A stretch of 44,281 nucleotides of DNA from Escherichia phage UAE_MI-01, in the sequence record MW862804; one strand, written 5' to 3'. Positions 1 to 44,281 of this stretch are shown piece after piece. The first letter of the stretch is position 1. Every line of letters begins with the position of its first letter. The notes under the pieces are model-generated. The model worked only from the letters and a program-made list of their open reading frames with translations, did not search any database and was not told the origin of the DNA. The position numbers and the translations under genes were made by a program.

Positions 1-280
1 TCTGAAAGACTGGGCTTTGTCCCGCCTGTCCCGATCGGCTAAAACCCGCGGCAGCACTGGCGGGGACAGGGGTGCTGTCCCGCTTTGTCCCGCCTCATTC
101 TGTCCCGCTTTTTGTCCCGCTTAGTTTATGCAATAAAACTGCATAACTATTCACATTTTGGGGGCGGGACAGATCGGGACAGCACCCCTGTCCCGCTTTT
201 AATTTATGCAATTGTGGTGAGTAAATATGCAGTTTTAGAGGTGCGGGACAAAACGGGACGTCCCGCCTGTCCCGCTCCGT
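1..280. repeat. Noncoding module copy A (right part): 13-nt mini-hairpin TCTGAAAGACTGG, array of at least 12 GTCCCGC/GCGGGAC heptamers, palindrome TTATGCA-ataaaac-TGCATAA at 126..146
   Basis: Direct reading; heptamers at 19-25, 77-83, 87-93, 102-108, 114-120, 164-170, 190-196, 243-249, 260-266, 269-275; near-identical to 16698..16850. Confidence 0.85.
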
Positions 281-956
281 TATGCGGGGTTCTGCCGCGC
301 CATTTCATCCAGCGCAACGCGTTCCATTAGCTTGATATATTTAAACGCACGTTGCGCGTTTTCGATGCCGTGCATCTTAAATAGCCATTCCAGTACGCCG
401 TAGTCGATGCCGTATGCGCCGCCGAATCCGGTACGCCATTGCGTGGCGCAATCGGTGAAGACTGCGACTATCTTCGCATTGTCGGGCCATATCGCAACAG
501 GCGGACAAACATCTTCGGGGGCCGCACCCCATAAACTTGCGGCTAAATCTTCGGAGGGTGGCGGCGGGCCATAAAAGCGTCGCGCCGCCTCAATTAGTTT
601 TTTTCACGCAGGCCCATCAGTTCGAGATAGTACGACGTGTGGAACACACCGAACGCGCGAGGGTAGTTAACCACCAGGCGGCGGACGTTCTCCGCGTTAA
701 ATTCATCTGGCAGATTCCAGCCTTCAGCGACGTGCATGATGGCCTCGACCATAACGTTAAATCCTTCCGGGTCGTTGTCGTCGTATTCCGACAGCTTGCG
801 CTCCGTGTCCTGCATGGTCTGCGAAAACTCGTCGATCGGACGGTGGCGTACTGTAAACGTCATTTTTCCCGGTTCGTTCTCACCAGGGCGCGGGATCTCA
901 ATCGGCAGCTTAAAAGTCGGCTTAGGGTCAAGTGTAAAGAGTGGTGCTTTAGCCAT
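280..956 (-). CDS. Tail assembly chaperone, -1 frameshift-extended form (lambda G-T-like fusion)
   Basis: Slippery heptamer A_AAA_AAC (minus strand, plus 597..603) two codons before the G stop; the -1 frame stays open for about 105 further codons to TAA at 280..282; position between major tail protein and TMP. Confidence 0.6.
594..956 (-). CDS. Tail assembly chaperone (lambda gpG-like), short form
   Basis: ATG at 956 with GGAGAA RBS just after a terminator hairpin; acidic small protein directly downstream of major tail protein gene. Confidence 0.6.
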   Translation of the reverse strand: MAKAPLFTLDPKPTFKLPIEIPRPGENEPGKMTFTVRHRPIDEFSQTMQDTERKLSEYDDNDPEGFNVMVEAIMHVAEGWNLPDEFNAENVRRLVVNYPRAFGVFHTSYYLELMGLREKN

Positions 957-10109: not shown

Positions 10110-11495
10110 TTAGTAGAAGTCTACAGTAGGAACAGCGGCGATTGGACGAATCACAGGGAACAGGTGCGCAATAGGGTATCCCGCTGCGTCATTCATGTGG
10201 TCCACTCCTGCAGTTTTATCCGGCTCGCCTTTCTTAAGGTCGTACACCTGCTGTTCCAGACATTTCGCTAGTGTAGGGCATTTATCCAGGTTGACAAAAT
10301 ACTGGCGCACGCCCTTCGAGTTGCACATCATCGTATTCATCGCGATCAATCGGTCTTTCACAGGTGGGTTAACGCTGTCATATTCCACCTCGAAGCCAGC
10401 GTCTTCCAGTTGTGCGATATCGGACGACGACGCGTTGACCGTCTTGCGGGATTTGCCGCTGCTGTCCGGGTAAACGACAACACGACCGGCAGCACAATGA
10501 TCGGGGTAGCGCTCCTCGATCGCTTCAATCATAGCCGGGGTATCAAACAGGTCCACTAATTCATCCACGGCGTGAATCTCGTCGCGGAACTCCTTGTTCT
10601 CGGTGGTACGCTGCCGTCTTACATACACGACCGCCGCCATTTTCGTGACGTTAAAGTCCATACCGATAATCAGCGTATCTTCCGGTTGTACTTCTTCGGT
10701 GCTGGCGTTCTCCTCGCGATTGAACATCTTGTACACCGCGCCCGACGTAAGGTTAACAAACAGGCCGTTCAGGTACGCGTCGATCAGGTTAGCCGGGTAC
10801 TGACTGCGCAGCGTGTCGATAAAGTCTGCCGGTAAATGGTGGTTGTCTGTGGTCTTCGCCCGGATCAGGCGCTTTTGGCTATCCTTCTCCACCTCGAAAA
10901 TTTGGTACATCGCCCGGTAGCCTTCAGGCGTGGATACTATGACGAACTGGCGGACGAAGCCCGCACGCAGACGACCGAGCAATTTGTGATACGCCGCCAG
11001 CGCAACGTCTTGCTTCGTGGTGTCGAACTCGTCGGCAACAATCCACGCGGCGTTGACCCCGATCAGGCGAGTATAATTCTCCATTGATTCACAGATAACG
11101 CGAGTCCATTTGCCTTTCACCAGCACATTATAGATCTTGTCCTGCTTATTGAACTTCCACCGGAAGCCAGCCTCGTCAAACGCCTTTTCCAATTCCGGGT
11201 ACATGATCTTGACCAGGAGGGGAATAGTCGGCTCCGTCACAATGCCATCATGACCGGGGTTTAGTGTGAGAAGCTGGATTACCTTACGCGCAGCGACCCA
11301 CGACTTTCCGCCCCCGAAGCCGGAACACAGGCCGAGGATTTTAGTCTTCGTGTCGCGTAGTAGTTCGACCTGGTGCGGTAGGCAATCAGGCTGGTAAAGA
11401 CGCACCGCCTGCGCAACGCGTGTAGGGCGTGGCGGTCGGTTGCGCTTTGCGATCGCGCGTTCCAGTGCGCGGTGCTCTGCCGCATAGTTACGCAT
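10110..11495 (-). CDS. Terminase large subunit
   Basis: 461 aa; P-loop-like GFGGGKS near N-terminus; follows TerS-like gene with overlapping stop/start. Confidence 0.8.
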   Translation of the reverse strand: MRNYAAEHRALERAIAKRNRPPRPTRVAQAVRLYQPDCLPHQVELLRDTKTKILGLCSGFGGGKSWVAARKVIQLLTLNPGHDGIVTEPTIPLLVKIMYPELEKAFDEAGFRWKFNKQDKIYNVLVKGKWTRVICESMENYTRLIGVNAAWIVADEFDTTKQDVALAAYHKLLGRLRAGFVRQFVIVSTPEGYRAMYQIFEVEKDSQKRLIRAKTTDNHHLPADFIDTLRSQYPANLIDAYLNGLFVNLTSGAVYKMFNREENASTEEVQPEDTLIIGMDFNVTKMAAVVYVRRQRTTENKEFRDEIHAVDELVDLFDTPAMIEAIEERYPDHCAAGRVVVYPDSSGKSRKTVNASSSDIAQLEDAGFEVEYDSVNPPVKDRLIAMNTMMCNSKGVRQYFVNLDKCPTLAKCLEQQVYDLKKGEPDKTAGVDHMNDAAGYPIAHLFPVIRPIAAVPTVDFY

Positions 11496-12046
11496 TATTC
11501 GCCCTGGCCTTTGCCGGTAGGTTCCACTACGACGTCGCCGTTATCATCGTCGTCGTCATCCAGTGGGATATCGTCGCGGACTCCGTGGTTGGCTTTAAGC
11601 AGGAACGTAGCGAAGCCCGCCGCGATGGTTACGCCGCCAGCTTCCATCAGGAAAGTTTTCTGCAATTCCATAGCGTCCGCCATCGCCTCGGCGAACTCCT
11701 CATGTGCGCGCGCCCAGCGGTACAGGCAGGCAACGCCTACGCCAATTTCTGCGGCAAATCGGCCGAAGGTTGGCATTTTATTGCGCGGTATTACCTGCGC
11801 GGCCCCCTTATCAGAGTAGTTGACCTGCCAGGCTACGGCATCGGCGAAATAACGACGAAGCTGATCACAATACACAGTGCGGTAGTCGGTAGGGCGTCCG
11901 CATTTCCCGCCTTTACGGCGCTTGCCGTATTCGATCTCAGGTCCGAGATTGGTATGTTCGGTTTGCTCGCCTGGTTTACGGCGCGGGGTAACTGCGACTC
12001 GCCCGTCCAGTTTGGCGCGTCGGCCCTTAACTTTGATTTCTGCCAT
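11495..12046 (-). CDS. Terminase small subunit (putative)
   Basis: ATG 12046; basic N-terminus, HTH-like segment (FGRFAAEIGVGVACLYRWA), acidic tail; directly upstream of TerL. Confidence 0.55.
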   Translation of the reverse strand: MAEIKVKGRRAKLDGRVAVTPRRKPGEQTEHTNLGPEIEYGKRRKGGKCGRPTDYRTVYCDQLRRYFADAVAWQVNYSDKGAAQVIPRNKMPTFGRFAAEIGVGVACLYRWARAHEEFAEAMADAMELQKTFLMEAGGVTIAAGFATFLLKANHGVRDDIPLDDDDDDNGDVVVEPTGKGQGE

Positions 12047-16443: not shown

Positions 16444-16659
16444 CGTTCAGTCCTCTTGTTGGTGTGCAACCAAAATAGCAGGGTGCCAGGGTGAATGCAA
16501 CCAATATTAATCACGCGTATGAAAAAGTTGATCGCTATCTGCTGTGACTGCAAACTGCATTTCTCACCCTCCATTCTGCAACTCGCATTGGTTGCCTAGT
16601 TCATCGACGACCGCAATCCGCATCATGCTGCCGTGCGTTATGCAATCCTGGATTTTATG

Positions 16660-16850
16660 CAGTCTCAGACGAGGGGGGTGACAGACCCCCCGTCTAGTCT
16701 GAAAGACTGGGGTTTGTCCCGCTTGTCCCGCCCCCCCCCAGGCCGCGTCATCCGTGGGTGGGACGGGGTGCTGTCCCGCTTTGTCCCGCCCCTGGTCTGT
16801 CCCGCTTTTTGTCCCGCTTAGTTTATGCAGTTTTATTGCATAACTATGCA
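16660..16850. repeat. Noncoding module copy B: hairpin, mini-hairpin, GTCCCGC heptamer array (6-7 copies), C9 homopolymer, palindrome TTATGCA-gttttat-TGCATAA at 16823..16843
   Basis: Direct reading; about 85-90% identical to the junction copy over the conserved core. Confidence 0.85.
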
Positions 16851-16902
16851 CTATATTCACACTACACGGCAACCAATGCGACCGCCTAAAAGCCCATAAA
16901 AT

Positions 16903-16983
16903 GGCAACCAATGCGCGCAAAATTTAATCATTTACCGATATGGGAATTCCCATAACGGCAACCAATGCGCGCAAAATTTAATC
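16903..16983. repeat. Two 27-bp direct repeats GGCAACCAATGCGCGCAAAATTTAATC (16903..16929, 16957..16983) flanking a perfect 16-bp palindrome TATGGGAATTCCCATA (16939..16954); third partial copy at 16868..16882
   Basis: Direct reading; lies at and just beyond the 3' end of the primase gene. Confidence 0.8.
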
Positions 16984-19242
16984 TTTTAAATCGTCATCGG
17001 TCGCTGAAAGCGTGATAGGGATATCCGATTTGATGACCAAATTAGACGACCCATAGATGGCCCCGGTGTGCGGATCGGTATAGAAACCTATCACTCCGCG
17101 CTCCACCATATCGTCGATTGCCTTCGTCGAAGTGCCACCTTTTGCGAGTCCCGCCTGGCGGACGATTGCCGATTTACTGAATCCGGTATGGTCCGGGTTA
17201 TCTTCCATCAGTTTTTCCAGTGCCGCATAAAGCACTTTCTCTTTTTCATTGCGCGGTCCGGCGGTGTTCTCTTCCTTAACTGCGGCCTTGCCTGCTGCCT
17301 TCGCCTGTTCGATGGCGAACGGTGCCAGGGCAACCGGTACAAGATACAGCGTCTCATCGCGCGGGGTGGATGCAATCGGCTTGACGTCCCAACCGGCAAC
17401 CACATCTCCGAAGTCTGGCCCGGTGCTGGTGGACTGGTGTGCCTCGAACGCTTCTGACTTGCGGAGATCCACCTTAACTTTGCACTTGAGCAGGACGAAG
17501 CCGCGCGGCGCTTGCTTGATGCCGTTACGTGACTTTTCGTGATACAGGTTCAATTGTCCGGGCTGGTTGTCGTCCGGCTGTTCCAGGAAGAAAGCGGAAT
17601 CGACAGCACCATGCAGCGCGCCGGACCCGCGTGGGGTTCTGCTGCCGTTTGCACCTTTCGCCGGGTGGTGAATGACGCCCGCACTGCCACCTGTGTTTTC
17701 CGCGATGGCCTTCAGAGCTTTGACCACTTCGCCCATATCGCTGGCGTTGTTCTCGTCGAACGGTTTAGCATCGGCGGACCGCAACGCAACCGTCTGGTTG
17801 AGTGAGTCGAACGCCACCAGGCCAACCGGCTCGCCGTTAGCGGTGCGGTTGATAAAGCTGATAACTTCACGCAAGCCAGATTTGCTGGTGATATCCCAGC
17901 CGCGGGATTGCAGATCGATAATGTGCAGCTTGTCCAGGTCGTGCTCGTATTTAATCTGCAATGCTTCTTTACGCTGGTTGGAGGCTTCACCACCTTCCGC
18001 GTCGAAATAGAAGCAATGAGACTGGACGACCTTCGCACCGCCGAACGGGATCCCTGCGGCAACCGCGCCCATTTGGCCCAGCACATAGAAAGACTTACCG
18101 ATATTCGACTCACCCGCCATGTACCAGGTCGATTTAAAGTTAATCAACCCCTCGATAATCGGGTCGTGCTTACTGAACAGCGCGACCGGCTCGTTATCCA
18201 GATCCGCATCGGTGCACACGCCGTATTCTTCGCCGTCGCCAACCGCATCAACAATATGTTCGTATAAGGATTCGACTTCCTCGTCGTCCAGCCCCGGAAG
18301 GATGGCGGCGATTTGCTTGCGCGACATGTTGTGTGGCTCGACGTTCAGGTGGTCCGGGATCCCGATAAGACGCAGCGCCAGGTGCTGGTGTCTGTTCAGT
18401 TCCGAGCAACACTCGTTGCCGGTGTGCATACACTTGAAACGGATCTCGCCATCCTTGACCATAATGGCGGTGGACCCTTCGCCGCTGTGCAGATGTTCGT
18501 TCGGGCACGGCACTTCATAACCGCGACCGGAAGATAACTCCTCGAATCCTGCCTGGAAGCACCAGTCCAGAATGCCGTCTGCCACTGCGTCGTCGCCCTG
18601 GGTCAGTTCGCGGCGGACTTCCTCTTTCTCAACTCCCAGCTTGTCCGCCAGGCGGAGCAGACGACGGACGCGGGCGCGCTTGCCATAGTGGCATTTAATA
18701 ACAGACTGCTGGTGTGGCAGGTACATCAGGCGGTTTGTGTCTTTCGTGCAGTCGTCGAAGTCCACATCTGACAGGCCCAGTTGGTGTAATAGCGCATACT
18801 GGACACGGCCCAGGTCTTCAGCCGGTACAGGCTTGTCAGTGAGTACCAGGAATCGAGCGCAACGCGTGCCGCCTTTCAGTGGGTGACGGTCGCCGGTTGT
18901 GGTGTGGAAGACGTGCTCCAGCCCCGCGTCAGTGAACGCCTTACGGCAACGGCGTAAAGTGCGGGTGTCGGTGCGGTCAATATCGAAGAACAGGATCGAG
19001 CGGTCCACCGCACTGGTCTTACGACGCAATCCGTCACTGGTATACGCCACGATGCCGTCGGCCTTACGCTTGCGGCGCGCATACTCGGCTTTATCTTCTG
19101 TCTTGTTGATATGCACCGAGGAGATTTCTTTCGCATCTTTGATAAATTCGAAAAATTCATCGGTGGTCATCTGGAAGTTTTCCGCCCTGGCTTTTTCGCC
19201 TTTTTTAGCGGGTCTTGTTACAGCGAATTTAATTAAGCTCAT
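16978..19242 (-). CDS. Bifunctional primase-polymerase / P-loop (RecA/DnaB-like) replicative NTPase
   Basis: 754 aa; N-terminal FFDIDR-type primase-polymerase motif, Cys/His zinc-binding cluster, Walker A GESNIGKS in C-terminal half. Confidence 0.7.
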   Translation of the reverse strand: MSLIKFAVTRPAKKGEKARAENFQMTTDEFFEFIKDAKEISSVHINKTEDKAEYARRKRKADGIVAYTSDGLRRKTSAVDRSILFFDIDRTDTRTLRRCRKAFTDAGLEHVFHTTTGDRHPLKGGTRCARFLVLTDKPVPAEDLGRVQYALLHQLGLSDVDFDDCTKDTNRLMYLPHQQSVIKCHYGKRARVRRLLRLADKLGVEKEEVRRELTQGDDAVADGILDWCFQAGFEELSSGRGYEVPCPNEHLHSGEGSTAIMVKDGEIRFKCMHTGNECCSELNRHQHLALRLIGIPDHLNVEPHNMSRKQIAAILPGLDDEEVESLYEHIVDAVGDGEEYGVCTDADLDNEPVALFSKHDPIIEGLINFKSTWYMAGESNIGKSFYVLGQMGAVAAGIPFGGAKVVQSHCFYFDAEGGEASNQRKEALQIKYEHDLDKLHIIDLQSRGWDITSKSGLREVISFINRTANGEPVGLVAFDSLNQTVALRSADAKPFDENNASDMGEVVKALKAIAENTGGSAGVIHHPAKGANGSRTPRGSGALHGAVDSAFFLEQPDDNQPGQLNLYHEKSRNGIKQAPRGFVLLKCKVKVDLRKSEAFEAHQSTSTGPDFGDVVAGWDVKPIASTPRDETLYLVPVALAPFAIEQAKAAGKAAVKEENTAGPRNEKEKVLYAALEKLMEDNPDHTGFSKSAIVRQAGLAKGGTSTKAIDDMVERGVIGFYTDPHTGAIYGSSNLVIKSDIPITLSATDDDLKD

Positions 19243-19252
19243 TGCCGTGGCC

Positions 19253-19582
19253 TTACTTAGAAGTTTTATTATTGCGTACCCAGGAGCGCACTGTGCTCTG
19301 ATTAATCCCAGTCAACTCGGCAATCATCGCCCATGATTTGCCCTCGGCGCGCAAACGGATAACCTGCTTTTTGTATTCTTCCATTTCTTCATTGTGCTTC
19401 TGCAGCTTGCTTGCTGCCGTGCCGTTGAGCAATTCCAGCCTGGCGCGTAATTCTTTTTCTACACTGCGCAGACGTTCAATCTCAAATAGCACCGCCCCCA
19501 CGGCATCGGTATACGCCCATGACCGGCTTGTCTCACTGCAAACAGTCTTCGTTAACATTTCGATTGCGTCGTTGATATTCAT
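19253..19582 (-). CDS. HTH DNA-binding regulator (putative)
   Basis: 109 aa; coiled-coil middle, C-terminal HTH-like segment (KSWAMIAELTGINQSTVRSWVRN); palindrome GTTGGT-taatga-ACCAAC 14 nt upstream of its start. Confidence 0.5.
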   Translation of the reverse strand: MNINDAIEMLTKTVCSETSRSWAYTDAVGAVLFEIERLRSVEKELRARLELLNGTAASKLQKHNEEMEEYKKQVIRLRAEGKSWAMIAELTGINQSTVRSWVRNNKTSK

Positions 19583-19759
19583 TGCTCTGCCCTCAGTTGG
19601 TTAATGACCAACGAAACTACACCTAAAACCGAAAGGTGTCAAATCCTTTGGATATTGAAACGGGCGCGCACGCGTGTAATAATAATTCCCGTCTCATTGT
19701 CTCTTATTGGTTAGCGCCGTCGCATTTTGCCTCGGCGCTTTTTTTTTTGAAATTAGTTG

Positions 19760-19788
19760 TTGACTCCCTTCTGCAACCAATCTAATAT
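19760..19788 (+). promoter_or_regulatory. Sigma70-like early promoter (TTGACT-17 bp-TAATAT) with CAACCAAT motif in the spacer and a T10 tract upstream
   Basis: Direct reading of the -35/-10 hexamers and spacing. Confidence 0.55.
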
Positions 19789-19984
19789 TCACTCCGTCGA
19801 CAGGATGCAGGACGCAAACTGGAGAGGGGCAACGCAGGGGCCGGATCGAAGTGTCAGGATTCCCAACCGTGATTATATAACCAGGTCCACTACCCGAAAG
19901 GGAGAACGCGTAACCTGGCAATATGTTAAGGCCACCGACGAAGTTTACTGCCGACACCTAAACTTAACCAATCGGAGATACACC

Positions 19985-20527
19985 ATGTTTGAACAAATCG
20001 TAAACCTGATCACTCGCGGCGTAGTAGCACTGGAAATCATCGCTAAACATTATGAAACCGTTGGCGCTGCCGTAGACCCAAAAGCAAACGGCACTGCTAA
20101 GAAAGGCAAGGCCAAGCCAGATACTGAAGTCGAAGACGACGACGATCAGGACGAAGTCGAAGATACGCCTAAAACGAAAAAAGGCGCGGCAAAAGAAACC
20201 AAGTCTAAAGGTAAGGCCAAAAAAGAAGTCGTAGAAGATGACGACGACGATGACGCCGATGACGTGAAGCCAGCGAAGGGTAAAAAAGCTCCGGCGAAAG
20301 GCAAAGGCAAGAAAGATGCCGATCCGCTGGCAGAGATGCGCGACGAGATCAAACAGTATGCCGCTATTATCGCTGGTGGTGACGACGACGATGCCAACGA
20401 CGAATTCGACGACCTGCTGGAAGCGTTCGAGATCAAATCAATCGCCAAGCTGGAAGATGACGACGTCGAAGACTTCCACAAAGACCTGAAAGAAATCGTC
20501 GAAACCTATTTCGAATTGGAAGATTAA
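19985..20527 (+). CDS. Highly charged early protein with alternating Lys-rich and Asp/Glu-rich blocks
   Basis: ATG 19985 with GGAGAT RBS; first gene of the plus-strand operon; followed by terminator. Confidence 0.55.
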   Translation: MFEQIVNLITRGVVALEIIAKHYETVGAAVDPKANGTAKKGKAKPDTEVEDDDDQDEVEDTPKTKKGAAKETKSKGKAKKEVVEDDDDDDADDVKPAKGKKAPAKGKGKKDADPLAEMRDEIKQYAAIIAGGDDDDANDEFDDLLEAFEIKSIAKLEDDDVEDFHKDLKEIVETYFELED

Positions 20528-22680: not shown

Positions 22681-22770
22681 CCGCTTAGGCGCAACCAAGT
22701 AGATTAGCAACCAAGCCGAACGGGGTGGCTTCCAATAACCCCGATACATGTGAAAATGAGGAATTGGAAA

Positions 22771-23556
22771 ATGGCTAAAGTCAACCTGAAAAATGTGCGC
22801 GTATGTTTCCTGAAAATTTGGGAACGTGATACCCCTAAACAGGACGGACAAAAACCGGCATACCGCGCCGTGATTCTTCTTGATAAAGAAGATCCGCAGG
22901 TGGACAAAGTGGAAGCGGCAGCGCGCGCAGTGCTCACCGACAAGCTGAAATCCGAGAAGAATGCCGATAAGTGGATGGACCGCCACTACGCCCAGGATTC
23001 TAAGGAATGTGCAGTTCGCGACGGCGACGAGCGCGATGAAGTAACCGAAGAATTCGAAGGAATGTTGTACATCAACGCTAAATCGTTCAAACAGCCAAAC
23101 ATCCAAACGTCACTCGGCGAGAAGCAGACCGAACAGGGTCTGACCGTAGAAGGCGACGAAATCGAAGGCCAGGAGATCTACTCCGGTTGTTATTGCAATG
23201 TGTCACTGGATATTTGGGCGTGGAACAACACCAACGGCAAGGGACTCGGTGCTGGACTGCTGGGTTTACGCTTCCGTGATGACGGTGAAGCCTTCGGCGG
23301 TGGCGGATCTTCGTGCTCCGATGAAGACCTGGACAACGACGACGAAGATGAAAGCCCGCGCAAGTCCAAAAAGTCAAAACGTCGTGATGACGATGACGAA
23401 GACGACAAGCCGCGCAAGTCCAAAAAGTCCAAGCGCCGCGATGACGACGATGATGACGAAGACGAGAAACCTCGTAAACGTCGTAAGCCACGCGATGACG
23501 AAGATGATGAGGACGACGACGAAGACGAAGCACCACGCAAACGTCGCCGCCGTTAA
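22771..23556 (+). CDS. ssDNA-binding protein-like (DUF2815-type, putative) with C-terminal basic/acidic repeats
   Basis: ATG 22771 with GAGGAA RBS; synteny between DUF2800-like nuclease and PolA; C-terminus built from 54-63-nt tandem DNA repeats. Confidence 0.4.
   Translation: MAKVNLKNVRVCFLKIWERDTPKQDGQKPAYRAVILLDKEDPQVDKVEAAARAVLTDKLKSEKNADKWMDRHYAQDSKECAVRDGDERDEVTEEFEGMLYINAKSFKQPNIQTSLGEKQTEQGLTVEGDEIEGQEIYSGCYCNVSLDIWAWNNTNGKGLGAGLLGLRFRDDGEAFGGGGSSCSDEDLDNDDEDESPRKSKKSKRRDDDDEDDKPRKSKKSKRRDDDDDDEDEKPRKRRKPRDDEDDEDDDEDEAPRKRRRR
23356..23556 (+). repeat. Imperfect tandem coding repeats (54, 60 and 63 nt) encoding PRKSKKSKRRDDDD(E/D)n units
   Basis: Direct reading. Confidence 0.8.
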
Positions 23557-32401: not shown

Positions 32402-34018
32402 TTATTTACCTTCCAGCTTCTCCACTTTATGCAACAGGTGGACGAAGGCGGCACACAGATCCATCAACAGCACGTTACTATCCAAAGACAGCACATCGTC
32501 GGTATACCCGATCTCCTTGCGGTCGACTACAACCTCATTCCCTTCCTCGTCCACCCCCTTGACGTCCTCATAAATGGCGTAACCCGGCAGCAAATGCACG
32601 TATTCTGGGTCGATCCTTGCCAGGTCCTGCGCGATAAGGCCGTATCGCTGTACGTCCGACTCCTTATACTTGAACATTGCCGGAAGCCATTGGCGAACGC
32701 GGTTGTAGCTTTCCTCGCCGTCTGTGTATTGGATTTCTTTTTTAAGGTCGCGGTCCGATAGCGGCGCTTTCTGGAACTCGTTAACCGACGGGTTGCCGCT
32801 GTTACCGCTAATAAGCCTTTGGTCTGGCAAGAAGCGGAATAGCGCCTCAGTCACACCATTCTTCCACACATGGACGCGGTAGTCTGATACGTGTGTATCC
32901 CCACCCCTTACCAGGCCCGCGCGCGTCCAGTCCGCATACCACCTATACATCGTATGCCCAACCCAGCTATCAATCCCGTATAAAGCGTTTGACAGACTTA
33001 GCCCGTTAGCCTCTAGGGGCGCTAACTCTACTGAACTGCCGCCATTCAGGTGCAGCGCACCTAACTTAACTAAACTATCCTCGCCGACCCCAAGATTAGT
33101 GCGCGCAGCGGCTACAGTAGTCGCCCCTGTTCCGCCCTTGGTGATAGGCACTGTGTTCTCCGTAGCGACAGACCCCAAACCTAGATTTGAGCGTGCCGCC
33201 GATTGATCTGCTACGTCTGCCAGGTTCTGAGACGTCTTCATGAATTGCGTAGGGTCGATCGCGTTTTTGAAGTCTTCTGCTTCGTCCCGATACCCTTTCG
33301 CGGCATCTCTGGCGGCTTGCGCGTCAGTCTTCGCCGTATTGGCCTGGTCCCGAATAATGCCGGTATCCGTCCTGATCTGATTCGTCTGGTCCTTGATGGC
33401 TTGCGTATCGGCCTTAATCTGATTCGTCTGCGTCTTGATGGTGTTGGTGGCGTCGTGGATCGCCTGCGTATCGGCCTTGATTTGGTCGGTCTGCGTCTTG
33501 ATGGTATTGGCATCGTTCTTGAAGCCTTCGGCCTCATTGCGAAATCCTTGCGCGGCTGCTTCAGACGCGGCGGCTTGTTGTTGTAGGTTGCGCATCTCCA
33601 CCGGGTCGATCTGCTTCATTAGCTGCGACAGATATCCCCATGACATGCCCTGCATAACCTGCCCGTTAGGTAACGTCACTGTGATTTCTTCAGCGTCGCC
33701 AAAGATTGCACGCCAGTTGTTTTCGTCAGCGATCATCAAGCGCAACGCTTTTTGGGCCTGTACTGTTACGCCCATCGTTGCCAGAGACATGGTATCGCGC
33801 TTAACGCCATCCCACGCGAGGCCAGTTGCCGTGGGGCCGTCGAACGGCAGCACAAGCGTAAGCGCGGTGTCGCTTTCTATGGACGCGATTGCCACGGTGT
33901 ATGGGACTTGCCCTACCACCAACGTTAAGAAGTCGCCAGATGCAAACGCGGTAAACGTCGTGCCTACCCCGACAACCGCCTTGCTGTTATTCGTTACGGA
34001 TAGTGTACCCGCTGCCAT
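32402..34018 (-). CDS. Tail fibre protein with coiled-coil repeats and C-terminal intramolecular chaperone (peptidase S74-like) domain
   Basis: ATG 34018 with GAGGA RBS; repeated IKTQTDQIKADTQAI heptad-like units; C-terminal SDRDLKKEI ... GLIAQDL segment characteristic of auto-cleaving fibre chaperone domains. Confidence 0.65.
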   Translation of the reverse strand: MAAGTLSVTNNSKAVVGVGTTFTAFASGDFLTLVVGQVPYTVAIASIESDTALTLVLPFDGPTATGLAWDGVKRDTMSLATMGVTVQAQKALRLMIADENNWRAIFGDAEEITVTLPNGQVMQGMSWGYLSQLMKQIDPVEMRNLQQQAAASEAAAQGFRNEAEGFKNDANTIKTQTDQIKADTQAIHDATNTIKTQTNQIKADTQAIKDQTNQIRTDTGIIRDQANTAKTDAQAARDAAKGYRDEAEDFKNAIDPTQFMKTSQNLADVADQSAARSNLGLGSVATENTVPITKGGTGATTVAAARTNLGVGEDSLVKLGALHLNGGSSVELAPLEANGLSLSNALYGIDSWVGHTMYRWYADWTRAGLVRGGDTHVSDYRVHVWKNGVTEALFRFLPDQRLISGNSGNPSVNEFQKAPLSDRDLKKEIQYTDGEESYNRVRQWLPAMFKYKESDVQRYGLIAQDLARIDPEYVHLLPGYAIYEDVKGVDEEGNEVVVDRKEIGYTDDVLSLDSNVLLMDLCAAFVHLLHKVEKLEGK

Positions 34019-34098
34019 AGCTGAATCCTCATAAATTGGTTGCAATCCAGGTCGAGCGGTGTAATACTAAAACTCAACCAAATATAGGGGATGATACC

Positions 34099-40114: not shown

Positions 40115-40903
40115 CTACCCCTTAATTAATCTGGACCCAGGAAAGCCGCCGAAGTCCAGCACCGCCGCTTTCGGGTCCGCAAGCCCTTGCCCAAATCGAA
40201 GATAACAGTCGGACAAACAGCCGCCGCATCGGTCCATATTCATCGCAATGACTTCATTACCTCGCTCGTCGTAATACTTGATGCCGGGCTTCGCAAGGTT
40301 CCAGGTGCACCCGTCCCCGCTGGCGTACTTCCCGTTGAGCGCCCATTCGCACATATTCATGATTTGGCGACGGGGAACGACCTGCCCTTCCATATCCGCA
40401 GGCGAGGATAGTGCGAAGGTAATTTGCTTGCCCGGATTGCGCCCGACCTGCGAGTCGATGTAATACTCCTGAACTCGTTTCTGCGTCGGGTCTGGATCTG
40501 TCCCGTTGTCCAGGAACTTCGCGAACGTATCAATGATCTCAACCTTCGCGCCCAGTAGCTGGTCGTGGTTCAGCGACAGCCGGGTTATTATGCCGCCAAT
40601 ATCGACGATTGTTAGTTGCGGTTCTGCTGCCGTCGATGTGGAGAAGTTAAGGCCAGACAGATCGAAGGGCCAGAATTCGAACTCCTGCCCCCCGAAGAAG
40701 ATGGATTTAGGTTTTAGCTTATCCTCGTCACCACCAGCGGCAGCAATATCCTCGGCAGTGTGCGGAATGAAGCAGTAATGAAAATAGTGATGGCCCGCTC
40801 CGATCGCGCCGTCGCCTGGTTCCACGTCCTGCGCGTCAATGTGAATCAGGCGAACGCGGCCCGATGGGTCGAAGCGCGTCGCCTCGCGATAAAGTTTATT
40901 CAT
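40115..40903 (-). CDS. Minor tail protein L-like
   Basis: 262 aa with C-terminal Cys cluster; synteny between M and K. Confidence 0.65.
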   Translation of the reverse strand: MNKLYREATRFDPSGRVRLIHIDAQDVEPGDGAIGAGHHYFHYCFIPHTAEDIAAAGGDEDKLKPKSIFFGGQEFEFWPFDLSGLNFSTSTAAEPQLTIVDIGGIITRLSLNHDQLLGAKVEIIDTFAKFLDNGTDPDPTQKRVQEYYIDSQVGRNPGKQITFALSSPADMEGQVVPRRQIMNMCEWALNGKYASGDGCTWNLAKPGIKYYDERGNEVIAMNMDRCGGCLSDCYLRFGQGLADPKAAVLDFGGFPGSRLIKG

Positions 40904-41534: not shown

Positions 41535-44177
41535 TCATCGTTTATAAAGTACACCACCCGGTTTCGTTGCCTTCACGATCTCGGACTTCACCGCCTCGGT
41601 GATCTGCTTGCCGAACGCCTGCGCGGTACGGGGGTCCGGCCCGCTGACACTGGTATCCGTTTTACCGGTACCCGTGTAAACGTTAGTCGTCACGACCATA
41701 CCCCCGCCTGCGCCAGACGCGGCAACGCCCAGTTTCCCGTCCGGCCCGCGCTTCAGTGGCATGATGGCCTCGGGACCAGCCTCGCCCATCAATCCTGCGC
41801 CCTTAGCGAACGCCTGGACGCCATAACTGAAAAAGGTAGGCTGGCTTACCACTTTCCCCGAATAGGCCGCGAGATTGCCTCCTGCGTACGCTCCGCCGTC
41901 CGCATTCTTGGTGAGGCCCGAGAAGATAGCGCCGAACAATCCGTTTTTGCCGCCGTCGCCACCAAAAGCGCTAACGATCGACTTGAAAGCCTGCGAGGTA
42001 GCCAGCTTGATTAATTCGCTCAGGATGGACTTAACCATATCCTTTGCGTTCAGCTTGCCCGTCTCGAAAAACTCGTTCATCGTGTCTTGCATAGCGCTGA
42101 ACGTGAATTTTGTGAGCGTCGTCATCTGCGTATATCCGTTACCCATATCATCCACACTATCCTTAAGCCCGCGGCTGAAGCCATCCCATAGCGAGGCGTT
42201 AGCTCCGGTCTGTGCTTCCTGCACTTCGCGCAGCTTAGACACCGCCTTGTCTATATCGGTATCGTTAGCGCCAACCCGCTTCAGGCGATCAATTAGCTGC
42301 AATTCTTCGCGCAGGTTTGCCGCTTCGCGAGTGGAAAGCGCATACCCCGCGGCGGTGGCTTTTAGTTCGGCGTTCTGGTTCTTAACGAAGGCATCGATCT
42401 GCGCGTGCGCCTTAACCTGCTGCTCTTTCGCATCCAGCAATTTGGCTTCTTCGACGATCTGCTCGCGGACTTCCTTCACGCGCCCGAACTCGACTAATTG
42501 CTGCTTTTCTGCTGCCGTTAGCGCTCTTTCTTTGCTCGCAGCGATTAACTGCTCATTGTCGGCGATCAGCTTGTTTAAGGCCGCTTGAGCGCGTTGCGTG
42601 CGGGTCTGCGTAGACGCGTTGGCTTCGATCTGCTTGCCGGATTCTCGAAGCTGGGCCAGTTCGCTCCGTGCGACTTCCAGCATTTTCATACCGGCATCCA
42701 CGCGAACAGCCGCGGCCTTCTTCGGGGCGGGATCTTTGTAGCGCTCGTTTACCTGCTTCACCGCCTCGGCAAGCTCTTTCTCGTCAATAACGCCACGCTT
42801 ATTCAGCAAATTGAGACGGGCGATCTCGTCGGCGCGCTTCTTCGCGTTAGTTGCGTACTCCTTCTCGAACGCGGCGCGGTCGCGAGCGGTGCGGTTGGCC
42901 TCCTCGTTCGCCTTTGCGGATTCGTCCGCGGCACGGGCGTTGTCGCGCTCCGCACGGTTACGCAGGGTGAGCGACGCCACTACTTTCTCCTGGGCGACCA
43001 GTTCGCTGTAAAGCATGTTAATACGCGCTTTCTGCGCTTCAGTCATTACCCCACCGGCAGCGTTTACCGCTTTCATCTCGGCATAGTAAGCCGTGGTTAG
43101 TCGCTGCAATGACTCACGCGCTTTCATCTCAGATTCATTGGAGGACTGCGCGCGGCCCACATCCAGGATGGCGTCCCACATTGATTTGGCTGCCGATGTG
43201 ACGCCGTTCATCGACCGCTCAAGCGTACCCATGTTGGACTTGATTTCATTGGTCATGCTGGTGAACGACGCAGCGGCTGTTTTGTTAGCCAACGCAACTG
43301 CGTCTGTCTCACGACCCGCATCAACGAGCGACTGTACCTGCTGGATCTGCGCTTCGTTTACGACGTGATACTTATCCGCCAGCGCACGCAGTCCGCCAAC
43401 GGGGTCGGTTGACAGCTTCGCCACAGCCGCTACCACATCCTCGATCGGCTGGCTGGACACCTTCGCGAAGTCATTCACTACCTTAGCCAATGCGCCGAAG
43501 TCACCACCCGCTTTCACACCTGCCGCCGCCAGCGCCTGGATTGTGTCACGCGTCTTGCGAAATGACCCGCCCATGCGCTCGGCGTTCTCGGACAGCACCA
43601 GGATCTGGTTAGCGGTGAGGCCGGAGATATTACCAGACAGCGCCAGCGTCTTGTTAAGCGCTGCCACCTGGTTCTCTGCTCGGGACGTAATTGCCACGCC
43701 CACGCCTAAAGTCGCCGTTACAGCGGTGAGGCCGATCCCTACGGGGCCGAGGAAGCCCGCAACATACCGAAGCGTGTTACCCAGTCCGCCAAATGCGCCG
43801 GTTAGCTGTGGTAACTGCTGAAGCATGACGCGGTGCACCGGCATACCCATCTCAAGCGTAACCGCGATATCCTGTAACTGGAATGCGGCGTTACGCGAGG
43901 CAAAGCCCAAGTTTTTTGTCGACATGCCTAATCGGCTGGCGAGTCGCTCCTGTTTCGTCATGCCGTCGGCGGCGCGCTGCGATTCAGTCGCTAACTTTTC
44001 CATTCCGCCCGCGGCGTCGCCAGTAACCTTTTTCGACTTGCCGAGTGTGTCGTTTAATTTTTTTACTTTCTGTTCTGTGTTCTCGGATTTCTGCGCAAAT
44101 GTGTCCAGCACAGTATTAGCCGTTTTAATTTGCGCGACGTCCGCCTTGAGCGTGATGCCCGCTGCCTGATCTGCCAT
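41535..44177 (-). CDS. Tail tape measure protein
   Basis: 880 aa, Ala/Gln/Lys-rich predicted coiled coil with Gly-rich hydrophobic segments near N-terminus; follows chaperone genes across the window junction. Confidence 0.85.
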   Translation of the reverse strand: MADQAAGITLKADVAQIKTANTVLDTFAQKSENTEQKVKKLNDTLGKSKKVTGDAAGGMEKLATESQRAADGMTKQERLASRLGMSTKNLGFASRNAAFQLQDIAVTLEMGMPVHRVMLQQLPQLTGAFGGLGNTLRYVAGFLGPVGIGLTAVTATLGVGVAITSRAENQVAALNKTLALSGNISGLTANQILVLSENAERMGGSFRKTRDTIQALAAAGVKAGGDFGALAKVVNDFAKVSSQPIEDVVAAVAKLSTDPVGGLRALADKYHVVNEAQIQQVQSLVDAGRETDAVALANKTAAASFTSMTNEIKSNMGTLERSMNGVTSAAKSMWDAILDVGRAQSSNESEMKARESLQRLTTAYYAEMKAVNAAGGVMTEAQKARINMLYSELVAQEKVVASLTLRNRAERDNARAADESAKANEEANRTARDRAAFEKEYATNAKKRADEIARLNLLNKRGVIDEKELAEAVKQVNERYKDPAPKKAAAVRVDAGMKMLEVARSELAQLRESGKQIEANASTQTRTQRAQAALNKLIADNEQLIAASKERALTAAEKQQLVEFGRVKEVREQIVEEAKLLDAKEQQVKAHAQIDAFVKNQNAELKATAAGYALSTREAANLREELQLIDRLKRVGANDTDIDKAVSKLREVQEAQTGANASLWDGFSRGLKDSVDDMGNGYTQMTTLTKFTFSAMQDTMNEFFETGKLNAKDMVKSILSELIKLATSQAFKSIVSAFGGDGGKNGLFGAIFSGLTKNADGGAYAGGNLAAYSGKVVSQPTFFSYGVQAFAKGAGLMGEAGPEAIMPLKRGPDGKLGVAASGAGGGMVVTTNVYTGTGKTDTSVSGPDPRTAQAFGKQITEAVKSEIVKATKPGGVLYKR

Positions 44178-44245
44178 TATGCAGTCCCCCTTTTTATGCA
44201 GTTGCCGTCGGTTATTGTATCAGCGAATTTAAAACAAACCTTATT

Positions 44246-44281
44246 CAGTCTCAGACGAGGGGGGCCATTGACCCCGTCTAG
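44246..44281. repeat. Noncoding module copy A (left part): conserved hairpin CAGTCTCAGACGAGGGGGG-loop-CCCCGTCTAG, continuous with window position 1
   Basis: Matches 16660..16697 (same stem, different loop); window end plus window start reproduces the contiguous internal copy. Confidence 0.85.

Follow-up and report, generated by a model that had tools for sequence, protein, structure and literature searches.

Orientation polymorphism of a palindrome spacer within a conserved repeat module of Dhillonvirus siphophages

Introduction

Hairpin-loop inversions in chloroplast genomes and the quasi-palindrome hotspots of Escherichia coli are examples of changes of the template-switch type, by which a short segment between inverted repeats becomes inverted in place. 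Template switching was furthermore described to invert the loops of microRNA (miRNA) hairpins (bioRxiv 10.1101/2023.04.19.537475) and a 5-bp spacer in inverted repeats of yeast promoters that bind dimeric factors (PMC13100816). Here, we report on a comparable arrangement in Escherichia phage UAE_MI-01 (sequence record MW862804; the whole stretch of 44,281 nucleotides is called the window in the following), in which the palindromic 21-mer TTATGCA-N7-TGCATAA is present in two copies, A and B, each of them located in a non-coding repeat module. As in the documented cases, the arms are short and perfect, few bases are exactly reverse-complemented, the flanks are intact, and the two states are polymorphic among close relatives. 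Unlike in these cases, both states occur at intermediate frequency throughout a genus, the mechanism is one that we infer, and the site has a paralogous copy in the same genome, with polymorphism restricted to the perfect copy of the pair.

Two further classes of well-known sites share features with this locus. The operators of the 434 and P22 repressors are dyad-symmetric sites of dimeric helix-turn-helix (HTH) proteins. The 21-mer resembles them in its invariant, inverted half-sites, in its fixed spacer length and in an A/T-rich centre that does not appear to be read base by base, but it differs in that the phage half-sites also occur singly or as direct repeats and in that the inverted or direct arrangement shifts among related phages. 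The terminal hairpins of parvoviruses and poxviruses exist as flip and flop isomers at the genome termini, which arise by hairpin transfer. Two isomers that are mutual reverse complements within a palindrome are found in the phage as well; its site, however, lies internally in a circularly permuted, headful-packaged genome. For members of the genus Dhillonvirus circular assemblies were reported and headful packaging was predicted (PMC9022532), which places the palindrome inside the genome and leaves no telomere.

The two loci themselves are already marked in the record of phage SO-1 (NC_013600.1) as repeat_region A and repeat_region B (11214-11597 and 40178-40657) with mutual similarity, and they are described there as direct, inverted and palindromic repeats. 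This annotation is descriptive, and the retrievable text of its entries for the two regions mentions neither spacer orientation nor a conserved 13-mer or lineage-specific iterons. In a literature search no paper describing these repeat regions was found.

Two copies of the 21-mer with mirror-image spacers

The window represents a complete, circularly permuted genome of a Dhillonvirus, i.e., an HK578/SO-1-like siphophage of E. coli, and it is ~92% identical to Shigella phage 1b and phage B2. Copy A (126..146) reads TTATGCA-ATAAAAC-TGCATAA and copy B (16823..16843) reads TTATGCA-GTTTTAT-TGCATAA. A sequence-only reading of this DNA had claimed that each spacer is the exact reverse complement of the other and that the flanks run in the same direction, and we read both copies in precisely this form at these positions. 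The arrangement is not a product of chance, as the pattern TTATGCA-N7-TGCATAA has only these two sites in the window even if one mismatch is allowed (0.01 expected from shuffled sequences). The left flanks are identical over 27 nt (99-125 corresponding to 16796-16822, repeat family D6), and the right flanks run in the same orientation over 8 nt (CTATTCAC at copy A, CTATGCAC at copy B), beyond which homology stops.

The heptamer TTATGCA is found 18 times in the window against 5.4 expected, with half of these occurrences within the two modules; the nine located elsewhere are approximately the number expected by chance. Isolated half-sites, which the sequence-only reading had noticed as well, are indeed present and conserved in relatives, although they start at 44177, 44194 and 16655 rather than at 44178, 44195 and 16654. 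The overlaps of TTATGCA with start codons, to which the same reading drew attention, do exist, yet a significance was not borne out and they appear incidental: at the tape-measure gene the overlap amounts to a single nucleotide (the A of the ATG at 44177), and the ATG of the phosphoesterase gene (13319-13317, minus strand) lies outside the modules within a TTATGCA of opposite orientation to the gene, which is most likely a coincidence because TTATGCA itself contains ATG.

Both spacer orientations of copy B coexist in the genus

To compare the homologous copy-B site, 37 distinct local sequences were collected from GenBank, IMG/VR and metagenomes, including the divergent Ioannina, LM40P1 and L223, and ~154-155 GenBank records of relatives were compared. 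The arms TTATGCA and TGCATAA are invariant in all 37 sequences, so the palindrome that had been noticed in the window is present in its relatives. The spacer occurs as six sequences, all of them 7 nt long and A/T-rich: GTTTTAT in 21, ATAAAAC in 11, CTTATTT in two, and ACAAAAC, GTAAAAC and CGTATTT in one each. Invariant arms together with a spacer that is free except for its length and A/T-richness are what a symmetric recognition site, as the sequence-only reading had suggested, predicts. In the GTAAAAC allele, found in phage BF9, the arms lengthen to 8 bp (TTATGCAG-TAAAA-CTGCATAA); these arms fit the 8-mer half-site TTATGCAG, a form that is also found at the isolated half-sites at 16655, 44177 and 44194.

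The frequency of the two main orientations was determined by a reciprocal discriminating BLAST search, in which a 53-nt query was used in its ATAAAAC and in its GTTTTAT form against ~154 GenBank records. The ATAAAAC form matched 61 of 154 records at 95% identity or more and 79 at 80-90%; the GTTTTAT form gave the mirror picture with 52 records at 95% or more, and the identity of each orientation class falls by the expected five mismatches when the query of opposite form is used. Thus, both orientations coexist in the genus at ~40:60, ATAAAAC being present in ~61 of 154 records and GTTTTAT in most of the rest. An instructive pair is formed by L201 and StarDew, which carry opposite orientations of copy B and share 192 identical nt to its left. 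With both spacer orientations present at the homologous site between identical arms and flanks, at least one in-place inversion at copy B is certain, and the palindrome-mediated inversion proposed from the sequence of a single genome was right in kind.

How often the spacer has been inverted was addressed with a neighbour-joining tree of ~500 nt of copy-B flanks from which the spacer had been removed. Orientation requires 8 parsimony changes on this tree compared to 11.7 for random labels. In the four-gamete test, ordinary pairs of single-nucleotide polymorphisms (SNPs) within 15-30 nt of each other already fail in 26-46%, and pairs of orientation and SNP fail in 5 of 9; the copy-B flank region thus appears heavily recombined or homoplastic. 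Recurrent flipping at copy B seems likely from these comparisons, although one old inversion followed by recombination fits equally well, given how often ordinary SNP pairs conflict with one another.

Two orientations of a segment between inverted repeats are also the product of programmed switches operated by site-specific recombinases of the Hin/Gin or Fim style, and a small protein annotated as 'transposase' is encoded nearby. Such a switch can be practically dismissed here: synapsis and strand exchange require far more DNA than a 7-bp segment with 7-bp arms offers, and the crossover sites of site-specific invertases (Hin/Gin/Cin, Fim) comprise ~26 bp or more; the 'transposase' is a 109-aa HTH protein without a catalytic domain, and no serine or tyrosine recombinase is found in the annotations of relatives. 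Moreover, the phylogenetic signal carried by orientation would be erased by rapid switching.

Copy A keeps a single orientation and is perfect only in UAE_MI-01

A different picture emerged for copy A, which is an imperfect palindrome in every relative examined and always shows the orientation xxAAAAC. It reads TTATGCA-CGAAAAC-TGAATAG in L122, TTATGCA-GAAAAAC-TGAATAG in B2, TTATGCG-CGAAAAC-TGCATAA in HK578 and TTATGCA-CGAAAAC-TGCATAG in Ioannina and LM40P1, so that the CGAAAAC spacer is kept even in the latter two divergent phages. A query with the typical, unflipped copy A gave a full-length match in 110 records, and a flipped copy A was found in none of these 110; the spacer-flipped query matched KarlBarth only, and worse than the unflipped query did. 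Changes accumulate in the right arm of copy A without compensation, and TTATGCA on the left persists, which argues for a half-site that is read as sequence rather than for a stem. As copy A is xxAAAAC in all relatives examined, the most divergent ones included, the contrast between copies A and B of the window cannot be explained by a single inversion between them, contrary to what the sequence-only reading had implied. The inversion belongs instead to the history of copy B and not to the divergence of A and B.

The perfect palindrome at copy A is confined to the phage analysed here, and its exact version is absent from all relatives examined, i.e., from ~155 GenBank records and from contigs of IMG/VR and metagenomes. 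Compared with the closest A-type flank, that of L122, which is 95% identical overall, six substitutions are packed into positions 133-148, and in comparison with the right half of the HK578 site a change of CG to AT in the spacer is the only difference. Copy A of the window is identical to the ATAAAAC allele of copy B, while copy B of the window carries the GTTTTAT allele. The mirror-image pair in this genome therefore exists because the changes in 133-148 turn copy A into the alternative allele of copy B. The cluster probably represents a short conversion or recombination patch derived from a B-type site; alternatively, a recombinant copy A may have acquired two point changes. An intra-site template switch was considered as a further source of copy A and rejected, since the left flank contains an extra T and the CG to AT change is untemplated.

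A version of 126-146 that is unique among the records and contigs examined may also arise from sequencing or assembly, e.g., from an assembly path through copy-B reads of the ATAAAAC type from a co-occurring strain. On both sides of the patch 133-148, A and B have sequence in common, and the window ends inside a repeat module, a sign that the assembler broke there. Positions 44241-44281 joined to 1-30 rebuild the hairpin and TCTGAAAGACTGGG sequence of which an intact copy is located at 16663-16720, which reveals a circular genome that was opened within the repeat module, probably because the repeat interrupted the assembly. We nevertheless consider an artefact very unlikely: joining a B spacer to the A-specific right flank needs a shared k-mer of ~15-20 nt, which is below the usual assembly k, and HK578 copy A already has TGCATAA-CTATTCAC on its right, so that a natural recombinant A differs from the window by CG to AT only. 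The polymorphism of the copy-B site is in any case independent of the window.

A probable symmetric recognition site and its proposed inversion by template switching

These observations are best explained if the 21-mer is a dyad-symmetric recognition site, the copy-B spacer of which was inverted by template switching with neutral consequences, and if copy A of UAE_MI-01 was converted; we assign this explanation a probability of about 0.65. The predicted site would consist of two inverted copies of the TTATGCA element (in its extended form GAATAGTTATGCA) with an A/T-tract spacer of 7 bp between them, and it would border an iteron-rich module. During replication, a nascent strand would jump to the opposite template at one arm, copy the spacer from there and return at the other arm. 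Such a flip would be functionally neutral because the site is symmetric and the reversed A-tract is the same duplex, and both orientations could then coexist in the genus. In the relatives copy A would not flip because the perfect right arm is missing, and in UAE_MI-01 it would have been perfected by the changes in 133-148 with the xxAAAAC orientation retained.

The traits of a spacer inversion are found at copy B, where the two states of the segment are exactly reverse-complementary between perfect arms and unchanged flanks, and a dependence on the repeat fits a perfect copy B that is polymorphic and an imperfect copy A that was never found flipped (0/110). The traits of a dyad operator are found as well, i.e., conserved inverted half-sites, a fixed spacer length and a free spacer sequence. 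The invariant arms, the uncompensated decay of copy A, the conserved single half-sites and a core that is kept beyond the genus (see below) point to a symmetric site read as sequence rather than to a stem.

A stem is the central element of another explanation, in which the 21-mer acts as a hairpin or cruciform, either as RNA on late transcripts or as single-stranded DNA at an origin, and selection on the stem leaves the loop free to invert. Loop inversion with retention of the stem is a classic hairpin pattern, and the site with its flanks folds better than shuffled sequences (-7.0 to -8.6 kcal/mol as RNA with z ~ -3; z of -2.8 to -3.2 as DNA). Moreover, the site of region A is placed at the tip of a 146-nt foldback, and most copies of TGCATAA read in sense with respect to the genes that follow. 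We judge this explanation improbable, as the right arm of copy A decays uncompensated in all relatives next to an intact left half-site, the 13-mer occurs in L260, L263 and Salmonella phage FSL SP-031 as direct repeats that are unable to pair, isolated half-sites are conserved, the stem is A/T-rich and weak, and no Rfam family is matched.

Several points weigh against the explanation by a symmetric site and template switching. The arms are invariant and therefore yield no covariation evidence either way, and the hairpin of the 7-bp arm (10 bp with a bulge) is weak (-4.4 to -4.6 kcal/mol as DNA). Selection on the orientation of copy A would give the same contrast between A and B, and the four-gamete failures among both kinds of pairs fit one old flip as well as several. 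The conversion patch stands on six clustered differences to a contig that is 95% identical, a signal of concerted evolution of the whole modules A and B was not detected, and copy A of the window is unique among ~190 relatives, which makes an assembly chimera possible. Finally, the modules are without a sigma-70 consensus, yet TGATACAAT precedes the tape-measure gene and promoters follow the module of L260 and L263.

Organization of modules A and B

The module shared by the two loci spans ~170-190 nt, and both copies are oriented as the genes downstream of them. Along the direction of transcription, the 21-mer is followed by GCGGGACA octamers, which are paired at a spacing of 9-12 nt, by a GC hairpin and by two direct copies of CTGCATAA. 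Out of 22 GTCCCGC cores in the genome, 16 fall within the modules.

The main part of module A, equivalent to region A of SO-1, occupies 1..290 on the minus strand, is non-coding, and separates the genes of the tail assembly chaperone (594-1004) from the tape-measure gene (41535..44177, minus strand), which is the first gene downstream of the module. It contains ten GTCCCGC octamer cores in both orientations. The remainder lies across the circular junction (44178..44281, minus strand), where the 3' half of the GC hairpin (44249-44281) continues into 1-14 and where the direct CTGCATAA copies are found at 44201-44194 and 44184-44177 (minus strand). An extended -10-like element TGATACAAT (cTGaTACAAT) at 44222-44214 (minus strand) lies 37 nt upstream of the tape-measure ATG and ~190 nt downstream of the 21-mer of module A; it is invariant in all ten Dhillonvirus genomes aligned, divergent ones included, and a -35 element is unrecognisable. 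On the plus strand, a degenerate second site A2 (204..224; TTATGCA-ATTGTGG-TGAGTAA followed by ATATGCAG) is found 78 nt from copy A. Copy A itself is near the apex of a large imperfect inverted repeat (63..194) with arms at 63-94 and 163-194 that are 94% complementary, and as single-stranded DNA the segment 55-200 is predicted to form an imperfect hairpin or cruciform of 146 nt (-44 kcal/mol, z = -8.8). In Rfam 15, module B had no hits and module A gave sub-threshold hits to miRNA hairpins only, which stem from this long foldback; the same foldback in phage B2 likewise gives sub-threshold miRNA hits.

Module B, equivalent to region B of SO-1, is the non-coding segment 16584..16977 on the minus strand, which reaches from the stop codon of the helicase-primase gene to the next operon, encoding lysis, terminase and head genes. 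It comprises six GTCCCGC cores, the 21-mer, the GC-rich hairpin (16660..16709), which has an invariant stem and a variable loop, and four GGCAACCAATGCG repeats. The latter family was found around module B only, with three direct copies (16868-16880, 16903-16915 and 16957-16969) and one inverted copy (16584-16596, minus strand) that bracket the module. In the distant contig L264 the repeat GCAACCAAC, which is related to GGCAACCAATGCG, fills the equivalent region. At the GC hairpin no intrinsic terminator was called on either strand and no T/U tract follows the stem, and a scan of both modules for sigma-70 consensus promoters gave none, including at the 21-mer.

Some further observations concern region A. 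Tail assembly chaperone and tape-measure genes are normally adjacent in siphophages; in all Dhillonviruses examined ~400 non-coding bases part them (290-594 and 1-290 in the window). A perfect 12-bp palindrome CGGGACGTCCCG followed by TTTTG is located directly after the chaperone open reading frame (ORF) at 260-285 (minus strand), and it is made of two GGGAC cores of the module itself. Its equivalent in HK578 is annotated as a rho-independent terminator just before region A. In region A of Dhillonvirus Kente ~80 nt are missing, including the 5' half of the GC hairpin, and the loop of the remaining half-hairpin, TCTGTCA, resembles module B of the window; this reflects either a deletion, an exchange between A and B or an assembly problem in the record.

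Outside the modules, the window contains other repeats. Imperfect tandem coding repeats rich in GAC/GAT/GAA at 20100-20420 and 23320-23540 encode acidic Asp/Glu runs in ORFs of the early region (19757-20527 and 22750-23556). In the minus-strand tail-fibre ORF 32402-34045, a 42-nt unit that has a sub-period of 21 nt is repeated five times (33363-33530), which implies a protein repeat of 7 residues.

Conservation of the module beyond the genus and candidate binding proteins

The core TTATGCA, extended to the 13-mer GAATAGTTATGCA, is conserved beside helicase-primase genes whose products are only 37-45% identical. In L265, with a helicase-primase of 37% identity, it forms an inverted pair with N7 (TTATGCA-TAAAAAG-TGCATAA); in L260, L263 and Salmonella phage FSL SP-031 (genus Cornellvirus) GAATAGTTATGCA occurs as direct repeats 21 nt apart, and in L264 its copies overlap to form the palindrome TTATGCATAA. 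These phages retain the GC hairpin, while the adjacent iterons differ by lineage, with TTCCGACA, GGGATAA, GGGGATGA or GGGGGAGA in place of GCGGGACA. The module layout after the helicase-primase gene is found at 880-1130 in FSL SP-031 (L558) and at ~4740-5100 in L260, L263 and L265; downstream of the module, L260 and L263 carry a consensus sigma-70 promoter (TTGACA/T-17-TATTGT/TATTAT). A search for a second module in an L263-type contig found the known one only, and in IMG/VR scans with TTATGCA-N7-TGCATAA, TGAATAGTTATGCA and GTTCCGACAGAATT chance matches swamp the matches listed. With one element conserved and the iterons next to it specific to each lineage, two readers are suggested, of which one may be conserved, i.e., a host factor or a conserved phage domain, and the other may co-evolve with the phage.

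Two proteins encoded next to module B were considered as readers. The replicative helicase-primase (16978..19242, minus strand; 754 aa), directly upstream of the module, has an AAA_25 ATPase core of the RecA type, and its last ~90 residues (16978-17300 in the window) form a winged-helix domain that is not annotated by Pfam. This C-terminal domain is the least conserved part of the protein, with 36-41% identity among homologs. Single-sequence structure prediction of the C-terminus reached a predicted local distance difference test (pLDDT) score of only 33, a homolog search with the C-terminal fragment alone gave no matches while the full-length query did find homologs, and sequence searches of the PDB for the helicase-primase were uninformative. 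The gene upstream of it (19253..19582, minus strand) encodes the 109-aa protein, which has a C-terminal HTH (HTH_23/Sigma70_r4_2-like) and is, as a lineage-specific protein, a candidate for DNA binding. A role in binding the conserved 13-mer was rejected for it, because no homolog is found beside distant modules that keep the 13-mer; at best, it reads lineage-specific repeats.

Origin-like region or late-transcription control as possible functions

Most likely, as judged from its layout and gene linkage, the module is an origin-like region served by the adjacent primase-helicase, the winged helix of which would read the lineage-specific iterons. This function is slightly favoured because a conserved element is combined with lineage-specific iterons and because the linkage to the helicase-primase gene is constant: module B starts at most 140 nt from the helicase-primase stop, and L260, L263, L265 and FSL SP-031 show this linkage, too. 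The pairs of GCGGGACA spaced by 9-12 nt with an adjoining A/T-rich dyad also correspond to the arrangement of iteron origins such as lambda ori, in which short direct repeats follow each other at about one helical turn. GC skew as an origin marker follows gene orientation only. DnaA boxes were considered as well, since TTATGCAC-G and CTATTCACA resemble TTATNCACA, and were rejected, because TTATNCACA-like 9-mers with at most one mismatch are not enriched (30 against 24.9 expected, one per module); the variation of positions 8-9 after TTATGCA among lineages counts against a DnaA box, too.

Control of late transcription is nearly as likely as an origin and must be taken seriously, although we hold it only tentatively. 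In this scenario, the 21-mer would be an operator or activator site, possibly of the 109-aa HTH protein. It addresses the function of the module and not the inversion, since spacer orientation is irrelevant to a dimer. Each module heads a late operon in the same direction, lysis, terminase and head genes for B and tape-measure and tail genes for A; the invariant cTGaTACAAT element precedes the tape-measure ATG, the module of L260 and L263 is followed by a consensus promoter, and the terminator annotated in HK578 is located just before region A. The scenario is weakened by the finding that neither module of the window yields a promoter of the sigma-70 type, by distant modules that keep the 13-mer without a homolog of the 109-aa HTH protein nearby, by the link of the module to the helicase-primase gene across genera and by the initiator-like winged helix of the helicase-primase.

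An origin-like function has two possible precedents. In satellite phage P4, ori and crr are bound by the alpha primase-helicase via its C-terminal winged helix, and the Bacillus phage SPP1 has two origin regions, oriL and oriR, that are bound by G38P. The likeness to P4 would lie in octamer iterons in two separated regions of a small genome, one of which is beside a gene for a primase-helicase-winged-helix protein. Unlike P4 alpha (TOPRIM/SF3), the Dhillonvirus protein has an AAA_25 core of the RecA type, and P4 is not known to have an equivalent of the TTATGCA dyad. SPP1 would be similar as a headful siphophage with an initiator-binding repeat region at its replication genes and a second copy among late genes; its proteins and repeats are unrelated to those of Dhillonvirus. 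By analogy, modules A and B might together constitute a bipartite origin, i.e., an ori with a crr-like partner, for a primase-helicase-winged-helix initiator, with copy B flipping recurrently because replication starts there. This is a speculative and rather unlikely extension. If it were true, Dhillonvirus, Cornellvirus and related siphophages would have the bipartite origin in common, GAATAGTTATGCA would be the landing site of a conserved host or phage factor, and template switches at an origin would have left a natural trace in the orientation of copy B.

Significance

The copy-B site is a clean natural example, from a virus, of a spacer inverted between short repeat arms, and a control is built in, as the imperfect paralog was never found flipped and the perfect copy occurs in both orientations at ~40:60 across more than 150 genomes. 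The type of mutation is already known, and the inversion is real but fairly ordinary; its apparent tolerance argues for a symmetric readout of the site, whatever the reader. More useful, as a by-product, is a conserved module beside the helicase-primase genes of several siphophage genera, in which the conserved 13-mer is combined with a GC hairpin and with iterons that are specific to the lineage, and to which some lineages add a promoter. For annotators, this module accounts for the ~400 non-coding bases between the tail chaperone and tape-measure genes, and for assemblers, it is a repeat of 150-190 nt that can break assemblies. For the biology of these phages, the module is a concrete candidate for the unmapped replication origin or for a late-control region of widely used coliphages and Salmonella phages.

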